Shown: piece by piece, positions 10,509 to 46,003 of the stretch | Layout: every line of letters starts with the position of its first letter | How positions within the stretch are numbered: position 1 is the first letter of the stretch | From: a virus | Lineage: Duplodnaviria; Caudoviricetes | DNA: 64,000 nucleotides | Strand: one strand, 5' to 3' | Virus record (IMG/VR): IMGVR_UViG_3300013121_000027 | Location: 1 to 64,000 of that record | Position numbers and translations under genes: made by a program | Notes under the pieces: model-generated | Seen by the model: the letters and a program-made list of their open reading frames with translations, nothing else | What the model was told of the DNA's origin: nothing | Database searches by the model: none

Positions 10509-10597
10509 GTCCGGTTATTCAGGAGACGTGGTAAATCCATCTTTCAGTTGGGTTGTCAACGAAACTGCGCATGGGTTCGATTCCCTAAACCGGCACT
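10509..10597 (+). ncRNA. tRNA-like RNA (non-canonical or degenerate)
   Basis: ccggtt/aaccgg acceptor-like stem, GGGTTCGATTCCC T-arm, GG-containing D-like loop; no clean anticodon arm. Confidence 0.4.
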
Positions 10598-10635
10598 AAT
10601 AGATCCTGGCAGCTGTGCACAACATCGACAGCGGC

Positions 10636-11127
10636 TCAATTTAAGGTGAAACGATAATGTATGCCAGTCTTGTAGTTTGGATTATTCAACCCCTTTGAGC
10701 TTGTTTTAAAAGCTTCACTTCTACAAGAAATAGAACAAAAAGGATTTTCTGGATTTCTTACTTGCTTCTCATAACGTTTGAATAATTTAAAACATTGAGC
10801 ACAAATCCAATCTTTTCGTGTATCCTGTCCTCTTCTGCATGTTCCTACTTGTCCTCCAGAAGAAGAATTGTATCCTATTTTAGGATCACATGATTTAAAA
10901 TAAGATATCCAAAAAATTTCACGATCATTTAAGATTTCATCTTCGCATTCTTCGATTAACTCAATTTTGAAAAATTCTCTACCGTATTTTCTTATTGCTC
11001 GTGAAATAGGCATTTTTTCGCTTTTAGATGTACAATGCCTACTGAATCTTTCGTTTAATGGACGTATCGTTTGTCCAATATATACTTTATTATTTGACAA
11101 ACAAGTTATTTTGTAAATATTTCCCAT
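10636..11127 (-). CDS. GIY-YIG homing endonuclease
   Basis: NIYKIT...VYIGQT...R...E motif plus C-terminal Zn ribbon; TGATATAAT 6 nt before ATG. Confidence 0.9.
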   Translation of the reverse strand: MGNIYKITCLSNNKVYIGQTIRPLNERFSRHCTSKSEKMPISRAIRKYGREFFKIELIEECEDEILNDREIFWISYFKSCDPKIGYNSSSGGQVGTCRRGQDTRKDWICAQCFKLFKRYEKQVRNPENPFCSISCRSEAFKTSSKGLNNPNYKTGIHYRFTLN

Positions 11128-11175
11128 ATTTAAATTATATCATATTTTTATATGATAGAAAGGAGTTTATTCGAA

Positions 11176-16109: not shown

Positions 16110-16138
16110 TTGACAAAAAAGAAAATAGTTAGTACTAT
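16110..16138 (+). promoter_or_regulatory. Sigma70-type promoter, leaderless for the HNH gene
   Basis: TTGACA-17-TACTAT, ATG 7 nt downstream. Confidence 0.7.
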
Positions 16139-16145
16139 TTAATGC

Positions 16146-16538
16146 ATGGCTTTACGCGATGATCCAGAATTAATGAAACAATATAAAAGAGAATGGACAG
16201 CTCGTCGTAGAGCCGCTTGGTTTGCAGATAAATATTGTGTTTCGTGTGGATCTATTGAGAGATTAGAATTAGATCATATTAATCCTGCTTTAAAAGCTTC
16301 TCACAATATTTGGTCTTGGTCAGAAAAACGCAGAGACGAAGAAGCAGCTAAATGTCAAGTTTTATGTCATGATTGTCATCAAGAAAAAACAATAGCTTTT
16401 ATTAAAAGAGATATTACTCATGGAACTCATTCGAAAGGCTATTTAAGAGGATGTAGATGTGTTGATTGTACAAATGCACATCGTATCTATAATAATAACT
16501 ATAGATTAAAAAAGAAAAATCAAACGGGTGTAGGCTAG
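16146..16538 (+). CDS. HNH homing endonuclease (stop codon lies inside tRNA-Met)
   Basis: CVSCG..LELDHINP...KCQVLCHDCH; C-terminal HG...GCRC..C. Confidence 0.88.
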   Translation: MALRDDPELMKQYKREWTARRRAAWFADKYCVSCGSIERLELDHINPALKASHNIWSWSEKRRDEEAAKCQVLCHDCHQEKTIAFIKRDITHGTHSKGYLRGCRCVDCTNAHRIYNNNYRLKKKNQTGVG

Positions 16539-16599
16539 TCCGGTTCACGCCACGTCTTTCATATGGACGAGATCGTGGGTTCAAATCCCACCACCCGCA
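16524..16599 (+). tRNA. tRNA with CAT anticodon (Met or Ile2)
   Basis: Cloverleaf: cgtct-ttCATat-ggacg, gtggg-ttcaaat-cccac; 1:72 mismatch. Confidence 0.8.
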
Positions 16600-16644
16600 C
16601 AATATATTACCTATTCCCTTTAATGAGAAGATACCATCGCCACT

Positions 16645-24218: not shown

Positions 24219-24650
24219 TTAATCTCTTTTTCTTCCCATGTAATCTACATTTTTCTCCCTATACTCTTTTCTCCATTGTTTACATAAATTACATCTACAT
24301 TTTTCTTTGTTATACATATGTCCACTTCCATGATTATAATCATCAATTCTATTGTGTCCTCCGCCAAATTCTCCATTTAATTTAGTTTTTAATTCATGAT
24401 GATCTTTACATAGCAATTGACATTTGGTTAATTCTTTTAAATAATCTTTTTTGTTAATCGACCATAGTTTAGATATTGGAAAAGCTTTCGTTTTTGGATT
24501 AATATGATCTATTTCCAATTTCTCTGTCGTTTGACAAATTATACAACAACCTCCTAAAATTTCTATTGATTCTTTTCTTCTTTCATAATATCTTTCTAAG
24601 ATCTTTTTTTTCATATATTCATTATATTGATCTTTATCTTTTAAACTCAT
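24219..24650 (-). CDS. HNH homing endonuclease (paralogue of 16146 and 40291)
   Basis: CIIC..LEIDHINP...KCQLLCKDHH; HG...CRCNLC. Confidence 0.88.
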   Translation of the reverse strand: MSLKDKDQYNEYMKKKILERYYERRKESIEILGGCCIICQTTEKLEIDHINPKTKAFPISKLWSINKKDYLKELTKCQLLCKDHHELKTKLNGEFGGGHNRIDDYNHGSGHMYNKEKCRCNLCKQWRKEYREKNVDYMGRKRD

Positions 24651-24719: not shown

Positions 24720-24792
24720 GCGCCTTTAGCTCAGTTGGTAGAGCAGGACACTTTTAATGTCAAGGTCGTGGGTTCGAGCCCCACAGGGCGTA
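24720..24792 (+). tRNA. tRNA-Lys(TTT)
   Basis: gcgcctt/agggcgt acceptor, ctTTTaa loop, canonical D and T arms. Confidence 0.92.
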
Positions 24793-24802
24793 CAAAGTTT
24801 TT

Positions 24803-24838
24803 GCTCTTTTAATTGGGGTTCGAGCCCCACGGAAGGTA
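24803..24838 (+). pseudogene. 3' remnant of a second tRNA-Lys
   Basis: cttttaa loop followed by ggg-ttcgagc-cccac and ggaaggta. Confidence 0.55.
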
Positions 24839-24841
24839 CTT

Positions 24842-26747
24842 ATGATAAAAACAACTTATATCTCTTGTGGTGAAGAAGATAACCAAGCCCTTTATATTGA
24901 TGGTAAATATGTAACTGGGCATTATTATTTAATGCTTGATGGGGCAATTGATATCGTTAAACATCTTGCCCCAGAGGCTGAAATAAAAACATATGAAATG
25001 CCTGAAGAAACTATGGAAGATTTAAATGGCTTTCCTGTTGAACTTCCAAACAATTTCGTTGAGCTTTGGAACTTAGTCGATACTCATCTATTTGAAGACT
25101 AAGGAATTATTACTATGAGTATATATTCTACAAGAGTAATATTAGGCGATGATGATTTTTTTGTAGAAACTGGTCCTGGTATTGTGCTTCAGTATAGCGC
25201 CTCACATATTTATCCAGATACTGAAACTCATGAACAAACTTCCTTAGAAACTGCGCATATTCCTCATTTTTGTATGCCAGGTGGTTATGATCTTGATGAT
25301 GAAGACCATCTGTTATATGCACCATGGATGAGATTATCCCTTGATGGAGTAAATGTCATTTTGGATAAAGAAGCAGTTAAATTATTAAAAGATGATTTGG
25401 AAGAATGGTTAAGTCATTTCCATGGGTAAATATCTTTATACTCCACCTGAAAAAGTTCAGCCAATGATTCATTTTTGCTATCAACCCTCTTTAACTAAAT
25501 CACAAATTGGTACTATCTGGGAATGCAGCTGTGGTCAAAGATGGCGACTTAATCGTGATTTTTTGCTTGTATGTAGCTGGCGAAGAATTTCTAAATGGCG
25601 TTCTAATAGAATATTAAAAAAACATAATGGTTGAATCATGTACTAATTGTAAATTTAGCTGGATTGAAGAAACTGGTTTTGGTTGTTCTCAAATGTATTG
25701 TCGTAGAAATCCACCATCTCCTTTTACTTCTTTTGCTTATCCATATCCCAAAACATATGATGGACAATGGTGTGGCGAATATAAATCTAATGAGCCACCT
25801 CTCTGAGAGATATTTTTTAAAATGAAAATTTATAGCTTTCAACCTGTTATATTATCTGAACCTTTTCAACCCAATAGTTCTCGTGTAGAAATTTCACTTG
25901 GTGATGTAGTAGTATTTACACATTTCATTTCTGAACAAGGACAAAGCGCTCCTACTTGGGAAGAAGAAATGATTGATGAAGCTTTTCGTATTTTTGCTGA
26001 GAAGCTTAAAAAGGCTATAGAAAATGTTTAGAAAATGTAAGCATAAATGGACTATTGTAAATCGTAAATTTACTCCACCAATTCCTAATATTGTAAAACT
26101 TTCAGGTCCAGATAGTGATCAAAAATTTTTTACTCTTTATGGTTTTACTACTATAGAGCAAAAATGTACGATTTGTGGTCAAATCAAGTTTGTTCACTGT
26201 CAAGGCAATCAAACATGAATGACCTTACAAAACTACTTGGACAAAGATGGTGGAGCGCTATTCCTCCTGGTTCTGTTTTAATTACTCCTTATCTTAGTAT
26301 TGAAAATGACAATGTTGCAATTTTTCAATTTAATGATATTATTTTTACAGTGACTTTATGGGAAGATAATATTATTAAAATTGAACAAGGTAATCTTGTC
26401 TATCAGTTAAAGAAAAATGATGATGAGTTATAAATGTCCTAAATCAAAAACTGAAAAATATTTTTGGCATATTTATGAGTTTCTGTTCTTATCCCTTGCC
26501 TTTATATTTTCTGTTCCATATGCTATATACTTGAAGATTAGATATCGTAAAAGTAAAAGGAGAATTGATGAAGGCTAAAGTGATTATTGAAATAGAAGTT
26601 TCTGCTGAGTTTCATAATCAAGCTACTCAAGATATGGTTGATGAATTAACTACTACCTTGTCTACTATTTTATCTGCGCAAAAAAATAATCCTGGATTTA
26701 AATTCTCAAAAGCACGAGTTAGATCTATTCTTAAAAAGAAGAGATAA
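24842..26747 (+). CDS. Run of small hypothetical ORFs (24842-25102, 25115-25429, 25422-25634, 25822-26031, 26024-26218, ~26215-26433, 26565-26747)
   Basis: Tightly packed or overlapping + strand ORFs. Confidence 0.55.
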
Positions 26748-26752
26748 TACAC

Positions 26753-26785
26753 AGGGGTATCGTCTAACGGTTAAGGCACTGAGCT
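26753..26785 (+). pseudogene. 5' half of a split tRNA-Gln
   Basis: AGGGGTATCGTCTAACGGTTAAGGCACTGAGCT; ends at U33. Confidence 0.8.
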
Positions 26786-27434
26786 ATATTAAATTATAAA
26801 GTTTTGCTCTTTTTCTAACTGCATTATCTGATACTCCAAATATTTTTCCTGCTTGTACAAAATTTGTTGTTTTAAGAATTTTTTCTAACTCTTCTTTTGT
26901 AGGATTAAATTTTCTTAAATGAGATCTTCCAATTTTATTTCTTTCTTTTTCTTCTTTATCTTTTAACTTCTTTTCTAAATTTCTTCCTGCATAGCTTTGT
27001 GTTTGTGTATGACAATTAGGACATAGAATTTGTAGATTTTCTATTCTATGATCATTATATATTCCATTAATATGATCTAATTGTAAAGTTAATGGTTTTC
27101 CATTCCATTCTGATCCAATTTTACATTCATTACATTTTTCTTCTAATATATTATTTTGATAAAGTTTTTTCTTTATCAAATCTCTGTTTGTATATAAAGA
27201 ATTTTCTTTAAAAATATCTTCCCATGGAATCATTATATAACCTCTGGCATGGTTTATATTACTTTTTCCTATTTTGGGTTTTAGTCCAAATTCTTTACAT
27301 GCGTTATGAAATGCTTTAAAATTTCCTCCAGCAGATCTTAATCCTAAAAACTTTAAAGCATCTGAGATACTTTCTGTTTTCTCTATAGCTTCTTTGAGTT
27401 CTTCTCTATTTTGTAGTATACTTCTTGTTCTCAT
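26784..27434 (-). CDS. HNH homing endonuclease inserted in tRNA-Gln
   Basis: CNEC...LQLDHINGIYNDHRIENLQILCPNCH; C-terminal HTH-like GVSDNAVRKR. Confidence 0.9.
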   Translation of the reverse strand: MRTRSILQNREELKEAIEKTESISDALKFLGLRSAGGNFKAFHNACKEFGLKPKIGKSNINHARGYIMIPWEDIFKENSLYTNRDLIKKKLYQNNILEEKCNECKIGSEWNGKPLTLQLDHINGIYNDHRIENLQILCPNCHTQTQSYAGRNLEKKLKDKEEKERNKIGRSHLRKFNPTKEELEKILKTTNFVQAGKIFGVSDNAVRKRAKLYNLI

Positions 27435-27445
27435 TATTATTCCTT

Positions 27446-27527
27446 TGGGGAGTAGCCGACATTGGTATAGGCATCAGCCTTTGGAGCTGACGCGAAAGCA
27501 TTGAGGGTTCGATTCCTTCCTCCCCAA
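27446..27527 (+). tRNA. tRNA-Gln(TTG) with a long variable arm
   Basis: tggggag/ctcccca acceptor, tcagc-ctTTGga-gctga, variable region cgcgaaagcatt. Confidence 0.88.
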
Positions 27528-27567
27528 CTGCTACTTCATGTAGTAATTCTATTTATTGGCAAACTAA

Positions 27568-27596
27568 CATTTAGGGTTCGAATCCTTATACCCCTA
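27568..27596 (+). pseudogene. 3' half of the split tRNA-Gln
   Basis: CATT-TAGGG-TTCGAAT-CCTTA-TACCCCT-A; TACCCCT pairs 7/7 with AGGGGTA at 26753. Confidence 0.8.
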
Positions 27597-27598
27597 CT

Positions 27599-28066
27599 AT
27601 GAAATATATATCTTGTCCATTTGGAACTCAATTTCATCCTATCAAATGTGAATTAAAAGATGACACTTTACTTTTAGCTAATTTTGACCTACTTCAAAAG
27701 GCTTGGGGCGCTTTAGGATATTCTCCTTATCCTCATTATTGGTATCAATTTCGTAATGGCTTTGGACTATCTGTTTTTAAGTATAAAAAAGACTTATGGG
27801 AATATGCAGTTTTGGATCATACTGAAAGTATTGCCGGATTTTATCTTCCAGACGTAGCTCACATTTTTAATGGCGCATTAACACCAGGCAATCAACATTT
27901 AGTTCATGCAGTGGTAGAAAAGGGCGTTCATACAATACTTAATGCTCTTCAATCTCATCCTAAAATCTTTGAATTTGATCCTCTTTATGTGGTTTATTCT
28001 TTTTCAGATGATCCAATTCCCCTAAAGCCTGTACAAGCTGATGAGGATAAAATTGATTTGTTTTAA
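27599..28066 (+). CDS. Hypothetical protein
   Basis: FRNGFGLSV pattern. Confidence 0.65.
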   Translation: MKYISCPFGTQFHPIKCELKDDTLLLANFDLLQKAWGALGYSPYPHYWYQFRNGFGLSVFKYKKDLWEYAVLDHTESIAGFYLPDVAHIFNGALTPGNQHLVHAVVEKGVHTILNALQSHPKIFEFDPLYVVYSFSDDPIPLKPVQADEDKIDLF

Positions 28067-38023: not shown

Positions 38024-38064
38024 CGGGACGTAGCTCAGCTTGGTAGCGCACCTGCTTTTGGTGC
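38024..38064 (+). pseudogene. 5' part of a truncated tRNA-Pro
   Basis: CGGGACGTAGCTCAGCTTGGTAGCGCACCTGC followed by a mutated loop; no T arm. Confidence 0.75.
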
Positions 38065-38081
38065 AAAAAATCCAAACTTGA

Positions 38082-38276
38082 TCTTCTGCCAACGACTACT
38101 ATGGGATTAAGTGTTGTAATGAAAACTGCCTTTTAACCGTTAAACAAATTAATATTCCAAAAGAACTTATAGATGTCCATCATATTGATGGCAATAGAAG
38201 TAACAATAATTTAGATAATTTAATACCTCTTTGCGTATGGTGTCATGCTATCACAACAAGAAATGTTATACTATAA
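38082..38276 (+). pseudogene. HNH endonuclease remnant (no start codon)
   Basis: Frame reads KCCNENC...IDVHHIDGNRSNNNLDNLIPLCVWCHA. Confidence 0.8.
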
Positions 38277-38283
38277 AATTTAC

Positions 38284-38354
38284 CGGGCATTGGTATAGTG
38301 GTAAAACACTTGCTTTGGGAGCAAGAGTCACAGATTCGATTTCTGTATGCCCGA
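38284..38354 (+). tRNA. tRNA-Pro(TGG)
   Basis: cgggcat/atgcccg acceptor, cttgc-ttTGGga-gcaag. Confidence 0.88.
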
Positions 38355-38357
38355 CTT

Positions 38358-38693
38358 ATGGAACCTTATAAACTAGATCAAGAATTTCTTGAAGCAAAAT
38401 CTCTTTTAGAAAATCTTTTTGCGCAGCTTCAACAATTAGAAGTCCTTGGATCTTTAAATCAATCTCTTATTCCAGAAACGATTGAAATCATGAAAATGAT
38501 GTTTAATCGCATTATTGAATTAGATTGCATGTTTGATAAATCTGATGATTTTGCTTTGCGTCTTAATCAAGCTTTATCTAAAGCAGATCCAGTAGCCGCA
38601 CTTCCCCTTGCTATTGAAGGGGTAGTCCTTCTTGATGATGTAGATGATCTTATTGCTAATTTCATATTTAAAGTTGATTCTGATGAAACATGA
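38358..38693 (+). CDS. Hypothetical protein
   Basis: ATG directly after tRNA-Pro. Confidence 0.6.
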   Translation: MEPYKLDQEFLEAKSLLENLFAQLQQLEVLGSLNQSLIPETIEIMKMMFNRIIELDCMFDKSDDFALRLNQALSKADPVAALPLAIEGVVLLDDVDDLIANFIFKVDSDET

Positions 38694-39047: not shown

Positions 39048-40235
39048 ATGGTACGTACATACGACATCCTTGATTCCGATGGAAATGAGGGTCGTGCGCA
39101 ATATAAAAGTCCCATTAAGAAATATGTTGCATTGGGAGTTGTTGGGGTTTTCCTCTTCATTTCTTTCATTGTAATCCTTGTTGGGGCTTCTCTCAACCGT
39201 GTTTCTGCCAATGAATGGGGTTGTCTGTACGGTGGCGGTCTTTATGAAAGCCACGGTTTGAAGGAAACCATTGCGCCAGGTAAGTCTGGTGGCATGACGA
39301 TTTTCGACACAATGAAAACCGTTCCTTCGGATGATCGGTTTTACTTTATCGATACAGATCCAAATACCGCAGACATTGGCGCAACTCCCATCATTGTCCC
39401 CGCACAGGGCACCTCAGACGAGTCTCAGGGCATTGTGAATGTAAGTGTTGAGGTTCAGGTTCGTTTCGTTATTAACGAGAACGCCTGTCAGCTTTACACT
39501 TCTAAACTCAAGCGTCTTGAACCACTCAACTTTGATACTCCCAGCGGTAAGTCTCCTGGTGGTTGGGGAAGCTTCCTTAATACTCAGTTGAATCAGGCAC
39601 TCATCAAGGCTTCTCGTCCTTTGGTTGCCCCATATAACTACATTCAATTGTATTCCAATAGTCAGATTCAAGTTGACGGTAAGAATACCCTTGTCTATGA
39701 CTTTATGGAAACTGAGTATGCTCAAAAGCTTACTGATGAGTTGAATACCACTCTTGGTGGTACTTTCTTCTGTGGACCCACGTATCGTTATGATGGTCAT
39801 GTTGATGGCGATTTCGATAATGGTTGTCCTCCGATTGAAGTTACCGTTAAGCGTGTTGCCCCAACTGATCCACAGCTGATCACTAACCTTGAGACTACTG
39901 TTAAGAACCAGGAACAGATCAAGGTGATTAAGTCCGAGCAAGAAAAGAAGCTTGCTCAGACTGCCGCAGATCAGGCAACTCAGCTTGCTGAAATCAAGCG
40001 TCAACAAGAAGTTGAAACTGCTCAGGCAGCCAAGGATCTTGTTGTTGCGCAGGCACAGAAGCAACTCTTCCTTGCGCAGAATGAAAATGCTCAAGTGAAG
40101 GCTCTTGCTGAAACTGCATTCTGTACTCAGCTTGCTGAAATTGGCGTAAACTGCGCTGATTATTGGGCATCAATGAATTGGCGCCCAACCACAATTCTTA
40201 GCGATGCAACTGGCGTTAACGTCAATTTGAAGTAG
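39048..40235 (+). CDS. SPFH/Band-7-like membrane protein
   Basis: N-terminal TM helix, SPFH-like core, Ala/Gln-rich coiled coil. Confidence 0.7.
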   Translation: MVRTYDILDSDGNEGRAQYKSPIKKYVALGVVGVFLFISFIVILVGASLNRVSANEWGCLYGGGLYESHGLKETIAPGKSGGMTIFDTMKTVPSDDRFYFIDTDPNTADIGATPIIVPAQGTSDESQGIVNVSVEVQVRFVINENACQLYTSKLKRLEPLNFDTPSGKSPGGWGSFLNTQLNQALIKASRPLVAPYNYIQLYSNSQIQVDGKNTLVYDFMETEYAQKLTDELNTTLGGTFFCGPTYRYDGHVDGDFDNGCPPIEVTVKRVAPTDPQLITNLETTVKNQEQIKVIKSEQEKKLAQTAADQATQLAEIKRQQEVETAQAAKDLVVAQAQKQLFLAQNENAQVKALAETAFCTQLAEIGVNCADYWASMNWRPTTILSDATGVNVNLK

Positions 40236-40245
40236 CTAATGGTTT

Positions 40246-40272
40246 TCCGAGATAACTCAATCGGTTAGAGTA
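40246..40272 (+). pseudogene. 5' fragment of a tRNA (acceptor strand plus D arm)
   Basis: TCCGAGA-TA-ACTC-AATCGGTTA-GAGT-A, then the HNH promoter TGATATAAT. Confidence 0.7.
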
Positions 40273-40290
40273 TTGTGATATAATGTAGAT

Positions 40291-40806
40291 ATGTCATATA
40301 AATACATTAAATCATTTCGCGAACGAAGACGAGTTTTCTTACGGGAATACCTTGGTGGTAAATGTGTCATTTGTGGGGCTACAGAGGAGTTGGAATTCGA
40401 TCATATAAATCCAGATTTAAAATTATTTGATATTTCTAATCATTTACATTTAAATCTTAAAGATCTTTTGATCGAAGTTAATAAATGTCAACTTCTCTGT
40501 AGCCCCCACCACATCGCTAAAAGTATTAGAGATTCTTTAGGAAAGAATTCTTGGAATGCAGGTACTGCTACGCATGGAAAACGTTATACTGCGTATACTT
40601 TAAATTGTAATTGTAATAAATGCGATCAGTTTAAAATAAATCAAAGATCTAAAACTAATCCTTATATTCATTTTGGTGGATCACAAATTATTCACGGAAC
40701 AAGAGGTGGCTATTTGAAAGAGGGGCGGTTAGGATTGGAGAGATGTGAAGCTTGTAAGAAAGCGAATGCAGAGTACCATAATAAATTTCGAGGACGTATA
40801 GTTTAG
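40291..40806 (+). CDS. HNH homing endonuclease (stop codon lies inside tRNA-Ile)
   Basis: CVICG..LEFDHINP...KCQLLCSPHH; two HG...C..C repeats. Confidence 0.88.
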   Translation: MSYKYIKSFRERRRVFLREYLGGKCVICGATEELEFDHINPDLKLFDISNHLHLNLKDLLIEVNKCQLLCSPHHIAKSIRDSLGKNSWNAGTATHGKRYTAYTLNCNCNKCDQFKINQRSKTNPYIHFGGSQIIHGTRGGYLKEGRLGLERCEACKKANAEYHNKFRGRIV

Positions 40807-40866
40807 CTTGGTTAAAACATTATCCTGATAAGATAAAGAGCGGAAGTTCAAATCTTTCTACGTCTA
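40792..40866 (+). tRNA. tRNA-Ile(GAT)
   Basis: ggacgta/tacgtct acceptor, ttatc-ctGATaa-gataa. Confidence 0.88.
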
Positions 40867-41292
40867 CTATGGCAAACGAAAAACAAAAAGAGCTTGCTGC
40901 AAGGGTTCATGCAGCTCATCTTCTTTCTGATATCCCACCTTGGATACATAAACTCTTAGATGATCTATCTCAAGAATTATCTGAAGTTCAACAAGCTTTA
41001 GATTATGAACTTGATGATACCGCCTGGCATATATAAAGGAAAATTAAATGTTTGAAATTATAGTTATTATTGTAGTTGCTCTTATAACTTCTTTGTGTAC
41101 TTCTACCCTTGCAGCTACGGTTTTGAGTGGTATTGATACACCAAGTCCTTGGTATAATAGACTTTATTCTACTATGCCTCGTAGGATTTTATCTACTCTT
41201 TTTGCTCTTCTTTGGCTTCCTTTTGTTTTTCTTTCTTTTTTTAAGCTTATCTTTATTGTACTGTGGGATTTTATAGTTAAAGGAAAATTAGA

Positions 41293-44113: not shown

Positions 44114-44188
44114 CGCCACATAGCTTAAATCTGGTTAAAGCCCCATATTTTTGTTGGGAAGATATAGGTTCGAATCCTATTGTGGCAC
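44114..44188 (+). tRNA. tRNA with a degenerate anticodon arm (identity undetermined)
   Basis: gccaca/tgtggc acceptor, D and T arms intact, anticodon arm irregular. Confidence 0.6.
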
Positions 44189-44189
44189 T

Positions 44190-46003
44190 ATGAAAAATAA
44201 TTTTAATGTGCGACTTTCCCATGTTTGGTATGATGGACCAAATGTAGCAATAGAAGTTTTAGAAGACAATGAATGGATTCCTTATGGAAAAAGTTTATTG
44301 GCGGATTCTATTGATGAATGGGCTAATGAGAATTCTGTAGATATGGAACTTGATCCTGATATTCATACTCCTGGTTTATATTACTTTGATGGTATAGATA
44401 TGGAAAAGGTTGATGAATCAAAAACTTAAAGATGAGTTAGCTTCTGTTATTGATGAGACAACAGCTCCAGATGATTTATTCAATAAGCTCTTAGTATTTA
44501 TTGAATATAATTATGAATTTAAATGTCCGGCGATTATTTATGGTGGTCCCGGACATCAATCAAGACATACTTGTGATCGAAATAATCCACATTCTATTGA
44601 TGATACTCATTATAATGATTATGGATATGAATGGACTGAAACTGCTGTAGTTGAAAATGGAAAATTAATATTTAATCCAAAAAATATGGAATGCTCCAAC
44701 TATTATTGGTGAAGAAAGCACTGAGATAAGAGTATATCGCGGATTTGTATACTATCCAGGCGCAATGGCTGAAATCAAAGAGGATATATGAAACTATGGC
44801 TTTTAACATATGAACATAGTATCGATTATGAAGGTGTCGAGACGAATATAATTGGTATTTTTGATGAAATTGAAAAGGCATTAGAAGCCGCAAAACCAAT
44901 TGAAACATATTTACGTAAAGAATATGAAAATTATTCTACAAATAGAAAATGGTTTGATTGGAACGGAAATGAAGAAACTGGTTATTATCTTCAAATGGTA
45001 TATTTAGTTGGTAATTATTCTGTTTCTATTAGCCCTATTGAATTAAATAAAGCTGAGATACCAAATTATGTCTTCTAATGATCCAGAACTTGCTGAACAA
45101 CTATTAAAGAGGTTATAAATAATGTCTGATATAAAATGTCCTTTTAAAATAGGTGATAAAATACAACATCTTAGTAGTTTGCCTTCACCTCGTGACGTTG
45201 TATTTGTCGGAAAAAAATTCATGGTCGTTAGCTATAAAGATAATGACTTTGATACAATTGTCCACGATATCAGTTATAAACATTGGAAAATTTGGGAACC
45301 TGAATGTCCATTTAAAATAGGTGATACCGTATATCATCGCAATGCTGGCAATTTTGTGGTAAAAAATATTGAACGCCATCCAACCATTAATGCTTGGCTA
45401 ATTAATGGTCACTTATTACATGAAGATGACCCCACAAGTATATATAGATTAACTAAAGTAGATCCGCCAAACCAAAGAACTACTTGGCAATTTGAAACAG
45501 AATATACATATCCTGCTATTGGTGATAGATTTATCTACGGCAAAGAACAGTATATTACTGTAGCAAACAATATGGATGTTAATCATCTACAAGAGGTAAT
45601 TGTACGTGATTCTATTAAAAAAATAGATCCTTATAATTCACAATATCTTAGATGTGGATTTTGCGATCATACATATATATATTCTTTAGTTAATGGTAAA
45701 GCAATAGATTATTGTTATCGTTGTGGATCTAATAATCTATTGGATTTTGATAATAGATTTGTTGGACCTCAGCCAAAATTCTAACCAATGAAAATTATAT
45801 TTGATATCTTATACTATGCTGCACTATGGATATCCCCTGGATTGTTTCTTGTAATCTGGATTAAAGTCCATTTTAAATTGCACAAATCCTCATTTAAACT
45901 TACTGATCGTGAAGTCTTTTTATATTTGTTGCTTGGTCCTATATCTTTCTTTATGATATTAGCCGCAATTACCATTCATCTTTATAAGGAATTTAAACAA
46001 TGA
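44190..46003 (+). CDS. Small hypothetical ORFs (44190-44429, 44410-44712, 44788-45078, 45122-45784, 45788-46003)
   Basis: Packed + strand ORFs; the 45122 protein has repeated CPFKIGD units. Confidence 0.55.

Follow-up and report, generated by a model that had tools for sequence, protein, structure and literature searches.

A probable free-standing HNH homing endonuclease gene docked against, and ending inside, a phage tRNA-Ile gene

In a 64-kb stretch of phage DNA (the window), taken from the start of a virus record that is complete, 231,459 bp long and carries direct terminal repeats (IMG/VR record IMGVR_UViG_3300013121_000027), we found an HNH endonuclease gene that runs without a gap into a tRNA-Ile(GAU) gene and ends on a stop codon inside it. 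We consider it likely that this is a free-standing homing endonuclease gene which docked directly 5' of a phage tRNA gene and is transcribed together with it, and that a tRNA stump just upstream is the scar of this history. The locus lies entirely on the + strand. It begins with the 5' stump of a tRNA gene, in which the acceptor strand (7 nt), U8-A9, the whole D arm and nt 26 are still present (40246–40272, recognised from the sequence and from D-arm identity). It continues with the extended -10 element TGaTATAAT (TGATATAAT, 40276–40284), the HNH endonuclease gene (171 aa, 40291–40806, PHROG 4234) and the complete tRNA-Ile(GAU) (40792–40866, ARAGORN and Rfam), and it is followed by an ORF of 55 aa (40869–41036). 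An earlier sequence-only reading had proposed the stump, the promoter, the HNH reading frame and the tRNA-Ile, and all four were indeed found where it had placed them. Free-standing homing endonucleases among phage tRNA genes, to which this HNH gene probably belongs, are already known, and the overlap of a coding sequence with a tRNA is already visible in the public annotations of the phages Crossroads, Cosmo and Catera. The interest of the present case lies in its clean and repeated architecture of leaderless promoter, stop codon inside the tRNA and tRNA stump. It offers a clear case of homing endonucleases shaping the tRNA gene set of a phage, in which nuclease and tRNA would pass on as a single unit and the remains of an older tRNA gene lie alongside.

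The phage has a GC content of about 35% and carries 22–23 tRNA genes in its 231-kb genome, which are scattered singly among the ORFs. Near-identical DNA is present in activated-sludge, wastewater and digester metagenomes of several studies.

ARAGORN placed the tRNA-Ile(GAU) at 40792–40867, while the Rfam tRNA model matched 40792–40866 with 67.2 bits (E 2.6e-14). The tRNA has a G1-U72 wobble pair and A as discriminator, and its CCA is not encoded. The last codons of the HNH ORF, GGA CGT ATA GTT TAG, are nt 1–15 of this tRNA, so that T13-A14-G15, where the D loop begins, doubles as the stop codon (40804–40806, +). The first 15 nt of the tRNA hence serve as the last four HNH codons plus the stop, and the HNH frame, which has no stop of its own, terminates on a conserved triplet of the tRNA. 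That the frame enters the tRNA by 15 nt to end on a TAG in the D arm had been claimed before, and the ORF coordinates and the tRNA call give it exactly; the further claim that nuclease and tRNA are physically inseparable holds by the same 15-nt overlap. Reading through the TAG would extend the protein by only three residues. Outside the window, at 82082–82155 of the genome, we noted a tRNA with the anticodon CUA (amber suppressor type, CCA encoded), which prompted us to consider a recoding of TAG. This idea was rejected, because TAG as a sense codon gains less ORF length than TGA or TAA. By this measure, TAG is an ordinary stop in this phage genome despite the tRNA(CUA).

The 171-aa protein is matched by PHROG 4234 'HNH endonuclease' (E 4.5e-25) and by four further HNH PHROGs; Pfam PF01844 (HNH) gave no match at E 0.1, and neither NCBIfam nor a search of PDB sequences matched it. 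We found 263 homologs, many of which are named McrA/HNH by their sources and several clusters of which carry PF01844, the closest being 41–48% identical. The residues C25, C28, D37, H38, C66, C70 and H74 do not vary among 56 sequences. This subfamily does not conserve the middle Asn of the HNH motif; the catalytic D-H pair, the downstream His and the four putative zinc-binding Cys are all present. The nuclease domain covers about residues 3–85, and the AlphaFold model (pLDDT 89.8) has strands at 34–38 and 66–70, followed by a helix at 71–85. A Foldseek search with the model returned nothing at E <=0.001 (best E 0.076). VIA-align with residues 3–86 gave Cap5 as the best match (Z 4.8, rmsd 3.2, 59 aligned), then the GVE2 HNH (Z 4.7), the Gme HNH (Z 4.5) and T4 endonuclease VII (Z 4.3), and the structural matches listed were nearly all HNH domains, including those of Cas9/IscB. 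Because every Z-score stays below 5, the fold evidence backs the HNH call without deciding it. The match to PHROG 4234 and the conserved DH...H together with the four Cys point to an HNH nuclease, as the sequence-only reading had proposed. The C-terminal half contains two HG..Y..C.C..C modules, which judged from their sequence probably bind DNA. A variant strain in one run shows three synonymous changes and one E-to-K codon over 158 nt, a small hint of purifying selection on the gene.

The extended -10 element at 40276–40284 is followed by 6 nt and then by the ATG at 40291, which leaves the last T of the element 7 nt before the A of the ATG. From this spacing, the predicted transcription start coincides with the start codon, as expected of a leaderless mRNA. 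The TGA within TGATATAAT is an in-frame stop just upstream and makes 40291 the earliest possible start, which is also the only one that keeps the N-terminal helix (modelled with pLDDT >95). The HNH gene has no Shine-Dalgarno sequence, a signal that about 40% of the long ORFs in the phage possess. On the + strand between 39900 and 41100 no full -35/-10 promoter was called, and we saw no separate two-hexamer promoter for the tRNA-Ile. The placement of the -10 element and the missing Shine-Dalgarno sequence together predict that the HNH mRNA is leaderless, with its predicted 5' end at the ATG.

This geometry is not confined to one gene. In the window we counted three matches of TGNTATAAT-N6-ATG where 0.09 would be expected, and not one of 100 shuffles reaches three. 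One of the two other matches heads a GIY-YIG homing endonuclease gene on the minus strand (163 aa, 10636–11127, or 10636–11142 including the promoter; Pfam PF01541, E 1.7e-9), which carries a leaderless-type promoter of the form TGATATAAT-N6-ATG as at 40276. Promoter geometry of the leaderless type is found at three homing-endonuclease genes, namely the HNH genes at 40291 and 16146 and this GIY-YIG gene. The extended -10 element 6 nt before the ATG, in leaderless geometry, which had been claimed for the tRNA-Ile locus, is exact in the sequence, and it recurs at the paralog and at the GIY-YIG gene. Just past the 3' end of the GIY-YIG gene, at about 10565–10600 on the + strand, there is also a weak T-arm-like motif.

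The stump reads TCCGAGA / TA / ACTC / AATCGGTTA / GAGT / A. This layout fits U8, A9, a 4-bp D stem (ACTC/GAGT), A14, G18-G19, A21 and a 9-nt D loop, and some of an anticodon stem may also survive, up to about 40276. Throughout IMG/VR the 19-nt D arm of the stump recurs exactly just five times; four copies lie inside tRNAs called by ARAGORN and one in a 5' part that resembles a tRNA. A loose motif for the D-arm structure is unspecific by itself, with 44 matches in the genome vs about 24 in shuffles. On the 41-nt stump piece alone Rfam made no tRNA call, local alignment of the stump region with 349 phage tRNAs exceeded the shuffle scores by no more than about 2.5 sd, and a MAFFT alignment of 148 tRNA 5' parts left the 3' strand of the D stem unaligned. 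Since the D-arm identity is exact and at least four similar stumps occur elsewhere in the genome, we accept the stump as a real tRNA remnant, and the earlier description of 40246–40272 as a tRNA 5' fragment stands.

Its assignment to an old tRNA-Ile, with TGATA as the former GAU loop, finds no support. Relative to positions 33–37 the TGATA is shifted by 3 nt, the sequence contains no 3' anticodon-stem strand after it, and the acceptor strands of stump and tRNA-Ile agree at only 1 of 7 positions. The exact twins of the D arm are Met/Ile(CAU), twice, and Ile(UAU), while the 5' part as a whole is best matched by the tRNA-Ile(GAU) of another phage and, within its own genome, by tRNA-Asn. We tried to read the isotype from the first bases, the D-stem type or the best 5'-part match and discarded the attempt, which gave mixed answers (Asn, Ile, Lys, Met). 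Judged from these comparisons, the stump cannot be assigned to tRNA-Ile. No tRNA 3' stump follows the tRNA-Ile; the ATG of the ORF at 40869 comes 2 nt past the discriminator (A-CT-ATG). This copy may have arisen by replacement or by insertion beside a resident tRNA, and the tRNA-Ile may have arrived with the nuclease or may already have been in place.

The genome holds three diverged HNH paralogs (30–40% identity), all of them in the window and each beside a tRNA. A sister cassette at 16110–16600 (+) consists of a promoter, an HNH paralog and a tRNA-Met. Its promoter, TTGACA-17-TACTAT at 16110–16138, is followed by 7 nt and the ATG, and the paralog (16146–16538, 130 aa) enters the tRNA-Met (16524–16600) by 15 nt, in the same frame as at tRNA-Ile, to end likewise on a TAG at nt 13–15. 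The third paralog (143 aa, 24219–24650, minus strand) has a Shine-Dalgarno sequence and lies head to head with, and divergent from, a tRNA-Lys (24720–24793, +). Of the other ORFs that precede a tRNA in the genome, about a dozen stop 4–15 nt short of it, and besides the two HNH genes only short or dubious frames overlap a tRNA. Next to the third paralog, 20 nt past the tRNA-Lys, we noticed a tRNA 3' stump at about 24813–24838 (+; GGGGTTCGAGCCCCAC plus GGAAGGTA) that has the T arm but not the acceptor strand in common with this tRNA-Lys, and the next ORF starts 3 nt on.

Altogether, the 231-kb phage contains at least six nuclease/tRNA cassettes, and further stumps stand beside intact tRNAs for Gln, Pro, Ala and Thr. 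Nuclease cassettes are found at tRNA-Gln (26753–27597), at tRNA-Pro (38024–38355) and, outside the window, at tRNA-Ala (89436–90097). The tRNA-Ile locus is like them in that a nuclease gene and an intact tRNA stand beside the stump of a tRNA gene. In the Gln, Pro and Ala cassettes the intact tRNA is AT-rich, the stump looks canonical and the break is near the anticodon arm; the break points of all stumps in the genome indeed fall in or near this arm (nt ~27–44). There are also clear differences. Stump and intact tRNA are of one isotype in the three cassettes, and for Gln, Pro, Ala and Thr the two acceptor strands agree at 4–6 of 7 positions, unlike the single position at the tRNA-Ile locus. 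The Gln and Ala cassettes keep a 3' stump, which the tRNA-Ile locus does not. Finally, the nucleases of the three cassettes belong to other HNH families and lie mostly on the opposite strand, whereas the tRNA-Ile HNH is co-oriented with its tRNA and overlaps it. A cut-and-replace cassette with a substitute of the same isotype was therefore rejected for the tRNA-Ile locus, given the missing 3' stump and the disagreeing acceptor strands.

Several other arrangements in the genome deserve a description. At 89436–90097 a minus-strand HNH gene and an intact variant tRNA-Ala together interrupt an older tRNA-Ala gene, both halves of which are kept. At 95800–95977, outside the window, the 5' stump of a tRNA-Thr gene is followed after about 75 nt by an intact tRNA-Thr variant, and no nuclease gene remains. 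The intact Ala and Thr copies have unusual AT-rich D stems (GTAT/ATAC), the stumps canonical ones (GCTC/GAGC). Again outside the window, at 82350–83200 of the genome, we found about six copies of a repeat of about 22 nt (RAACCGAATTTAAACGATTATC and variants), each with an apparent tRNA 3' half (T arm plus acceptor strand) within about 100 nt downstream, and a tRNA 5' stump lies among these repeats at 82870.

The same placement is seen far beyond this phage. We surveyed 74 non-identical IMG/VR loci that encode relatives of the HNH protein. The gene is directly upstream of a co-oriented tRNA at 30 of them, and its stop lies inside the tRNA at 22 of these 30, with 5 more stopping within 10 nt. The commonest overlaps are 10 nt (TAG/TGA at nt 8–10) and 15 nt (TAG/TAA at nt 13–15), and the extremes are 1 and 42 nt. 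By its placement beside tRNAs, with diverged paralogs and relatives at equivalent sites, the HNH gene appears to be of the free-standing homing-endonuclease type.

Close relatives of the phage itself were not found by a near-DNA search of the phage collection or by single-protein scans of IMG/VR and metagenomes. For a neighbouring gene of 395 aa, tblastn against phages gave no close relative; relatives at 64–80% identity exist. Alignment-based scans gave 11 loci at 37–50% identity, which are distant and not syntenic; they have neither downstream genes in common with the phage nor a tRNA at the junction and are therefore uninformative about this site. Contigs of two other wastewater/sludge studies show exactly the same stump-HNH and HNH-tRNA junctions. 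In the contigs of four wastewater/sludge runs, which are short pieces, identical or nearly so, and whose holes in coverage are uninformative, we saw no joint that skips the HNH gene.

Taken together, we believe that one transcript may start at the ATG and form the HNH message with the tRNA-Ile as its 3' end, from which RNase P and 3' processing would release the tRNA. The enzyme would cut the tRNA-gene DNA of phages that have no nuclease gene, and repair would copy in the nuclease together with its tRNA, the overlap keeping the pair inseparable. The upstream stump would then be the scar of a tRNA gene destroyed in such an event. In the simplest view, tight packing would account for a stop inside the tRNA. 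Conserved TAG triplets in tRNAs (nt 8–10 and 13–15) are ready-made stops, so that a gene loses nothing when its own stop disappears.

The layout poses the question of whether RNase P maturation limits the nuclease by way of non-stop decay or whether the genes are just tightly packed, and an answer would hold for many phages. If the tRNA matures from the HNH transcript, the RNase P cut at 40791/40792 must, by geometry, remove the last four codons and the stop. The overlap might have been selected for this effect, in that the product of the non-stop mRNA would undergo tmRNA tagging and degradation, and the amount of nuclease would have a ceiling and would fall as more tRNA matures. The exact geometry of the overlap speaks for such a device, as does the fact that, with no separate tRNA promoter seen, maturation of the tRNA must cut the HNH message. 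Both co-oriented paralogs overlap their tRNA, in contrast to the dozen or so other ORFs that keep their stop in front of it, and the majority of tRNA-adjoining family members are without a stop of their own. Leaderless starts of low efficiency would also fit a need for scarce nuclease. On the other hand, the family members stop at the first in-frame stop on offer, wherever it falls in the tRNA, and 8 of the 30 stop outside it. Other open frames upstream of tRNAs at the same loci behave similarly, 35 of 79 also ending inside the tRNA, although this control is crude because many of the 79 frames are probably not genes. Additionally, the phage has no tmRNA gene of its own. Over the family as a whole, the stop positions resemble a passive run-on that ends at the first available stop. 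We hold a selected switch of this kind to be improbable.

A related observation concerns the other side of the tRNAs. ORF starts abut the tRNA 3' ends, with C-T(T)-ATG directly after the discriminator or with an ATG that shares the A of the CCA. Such starts follow 7 of the 22 tRNAs as well as three old 3' stumps that have been retained; they lie in the window at 38355–38358, 40866–40869, 44188–44190, 27597–27599 and 24838–24842 and elsewhere in the genome at 82155, 91029–91031, 92183–92186, 90097–90099 and 97065. Because ORFs stop 4–15 nt before a tRNA and the next ones start 1–3 nt after it, tRNA processing would release leaderless mRNAs, and the layout looks like a tRNA punctuation of this kind. 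One may extend the idea and speculate that tRNAs punctuate the transcripts and that, through the HNH stop inside the tRNA, RNase P makes a non-stop message as a dose limiter selected family-wide. We regard this broader version as distinctly improbable.

The docked homing endonuclease also has to be weighed against a non-mobile housekeeping nuclease, used by the phage for instance in packaging or against host DNA, with the stump as a chance look-alike. HNH proteins do serve terminases in some phages, and the loose D-arm motif is common by chance, as the shuffles show. Against this stand the three diverged paralogs, each at a tRNA, and the ties of the HNH family to tRNA arrays in dozens of unrelated phages. 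Moreover, all 19 nt of the stump's D arm are found unchanged in D arms of real tRNAs, and comparable stumps flank other nuclease genes in the genome. We hence find a housekeeping role very hard to credit. A single interrupted tRNA gene, made up of the stump, the HNH gene and a 3' half located elsewhere and explained by a group I intron or a split tRNA, is barely conceivable and already contradicted: anticodon loops are classic sites of introns in tRNAs, and ARAGORN with introns allowed joins the tRNA-Ala halves at 89436–90097 as one gene, but it makes no such call at the tRNA-Ile site, group I/II intron models give no match in 40100–41000 even at E 10, where Rfam finds only the tRNA-Ile, and after the tRNA-Ile, with the next ORF 2 nt on, there is no T arm and no TCTCGGA strand that would pair with the stump.

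The preferred reading, a homing endonuclease gene docked at a tRNA, has two sets of known counterparts. T4 SegB, encoded in the tRNA gene cluster of phage T4, recognises a conserved T-arm element of tRNAs and drives its own inheritance together with that of neighbouring tRNA genes (PMC2330249). Both SegB and the tRNA-Ile HNH are free-standing nuclease genes adjoining or among tRNA genes, and the homing of SegB is described there as intron-less (PMC2330249). SegB differs in being a GIY-YIG enzyme with demonstrated activity (PMC2330249), whereas the HNH protein is a predicted nuclease, and the passages of PMC2330249 that were searched do not contain an overlap of the SegB stop codon with a tRNA. 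HNH genes are the commonest coding sequences in mycobacterial and mycobacteriophage tRNA arrays (PMC5966550, PMC6409571). The closest parallels in architecture come from actinophages. Crossroads gp113, Cosmo gp101, Catera gp167 and Streptomyces phage Navo gp159 belong to the same family as the tRNA-Ile HNH (32–42% identity, tblastn). These genes are co-oriented with tRNAs, and their coding sequence ends inside the next tRNA or tmRNA gene, as it does here. In the GenBank annotations, gp113 of Mycobacterium phage Crossroads overlaps tRNA-Leu by 32 nt and gp167 of Mycobacterium phage Catera overlaps a tRNA pseudogene, and gp101 of Mycobacterium phage Cosmo (KP027195.1, 58504–59283) overlaps the 5' end of the tmRNA gene by 32 nt. 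The actinophages, however, are GC-rich and have dense tRNA arrays, while the phage described here is a low-GC 231-kb phage whose tRNAs are scattered singly. Unlike the actinophage HNH genes, the HNH gene at tRNA-Ile has a leaderless-type promoter of its own and a tRNA stump upstream.
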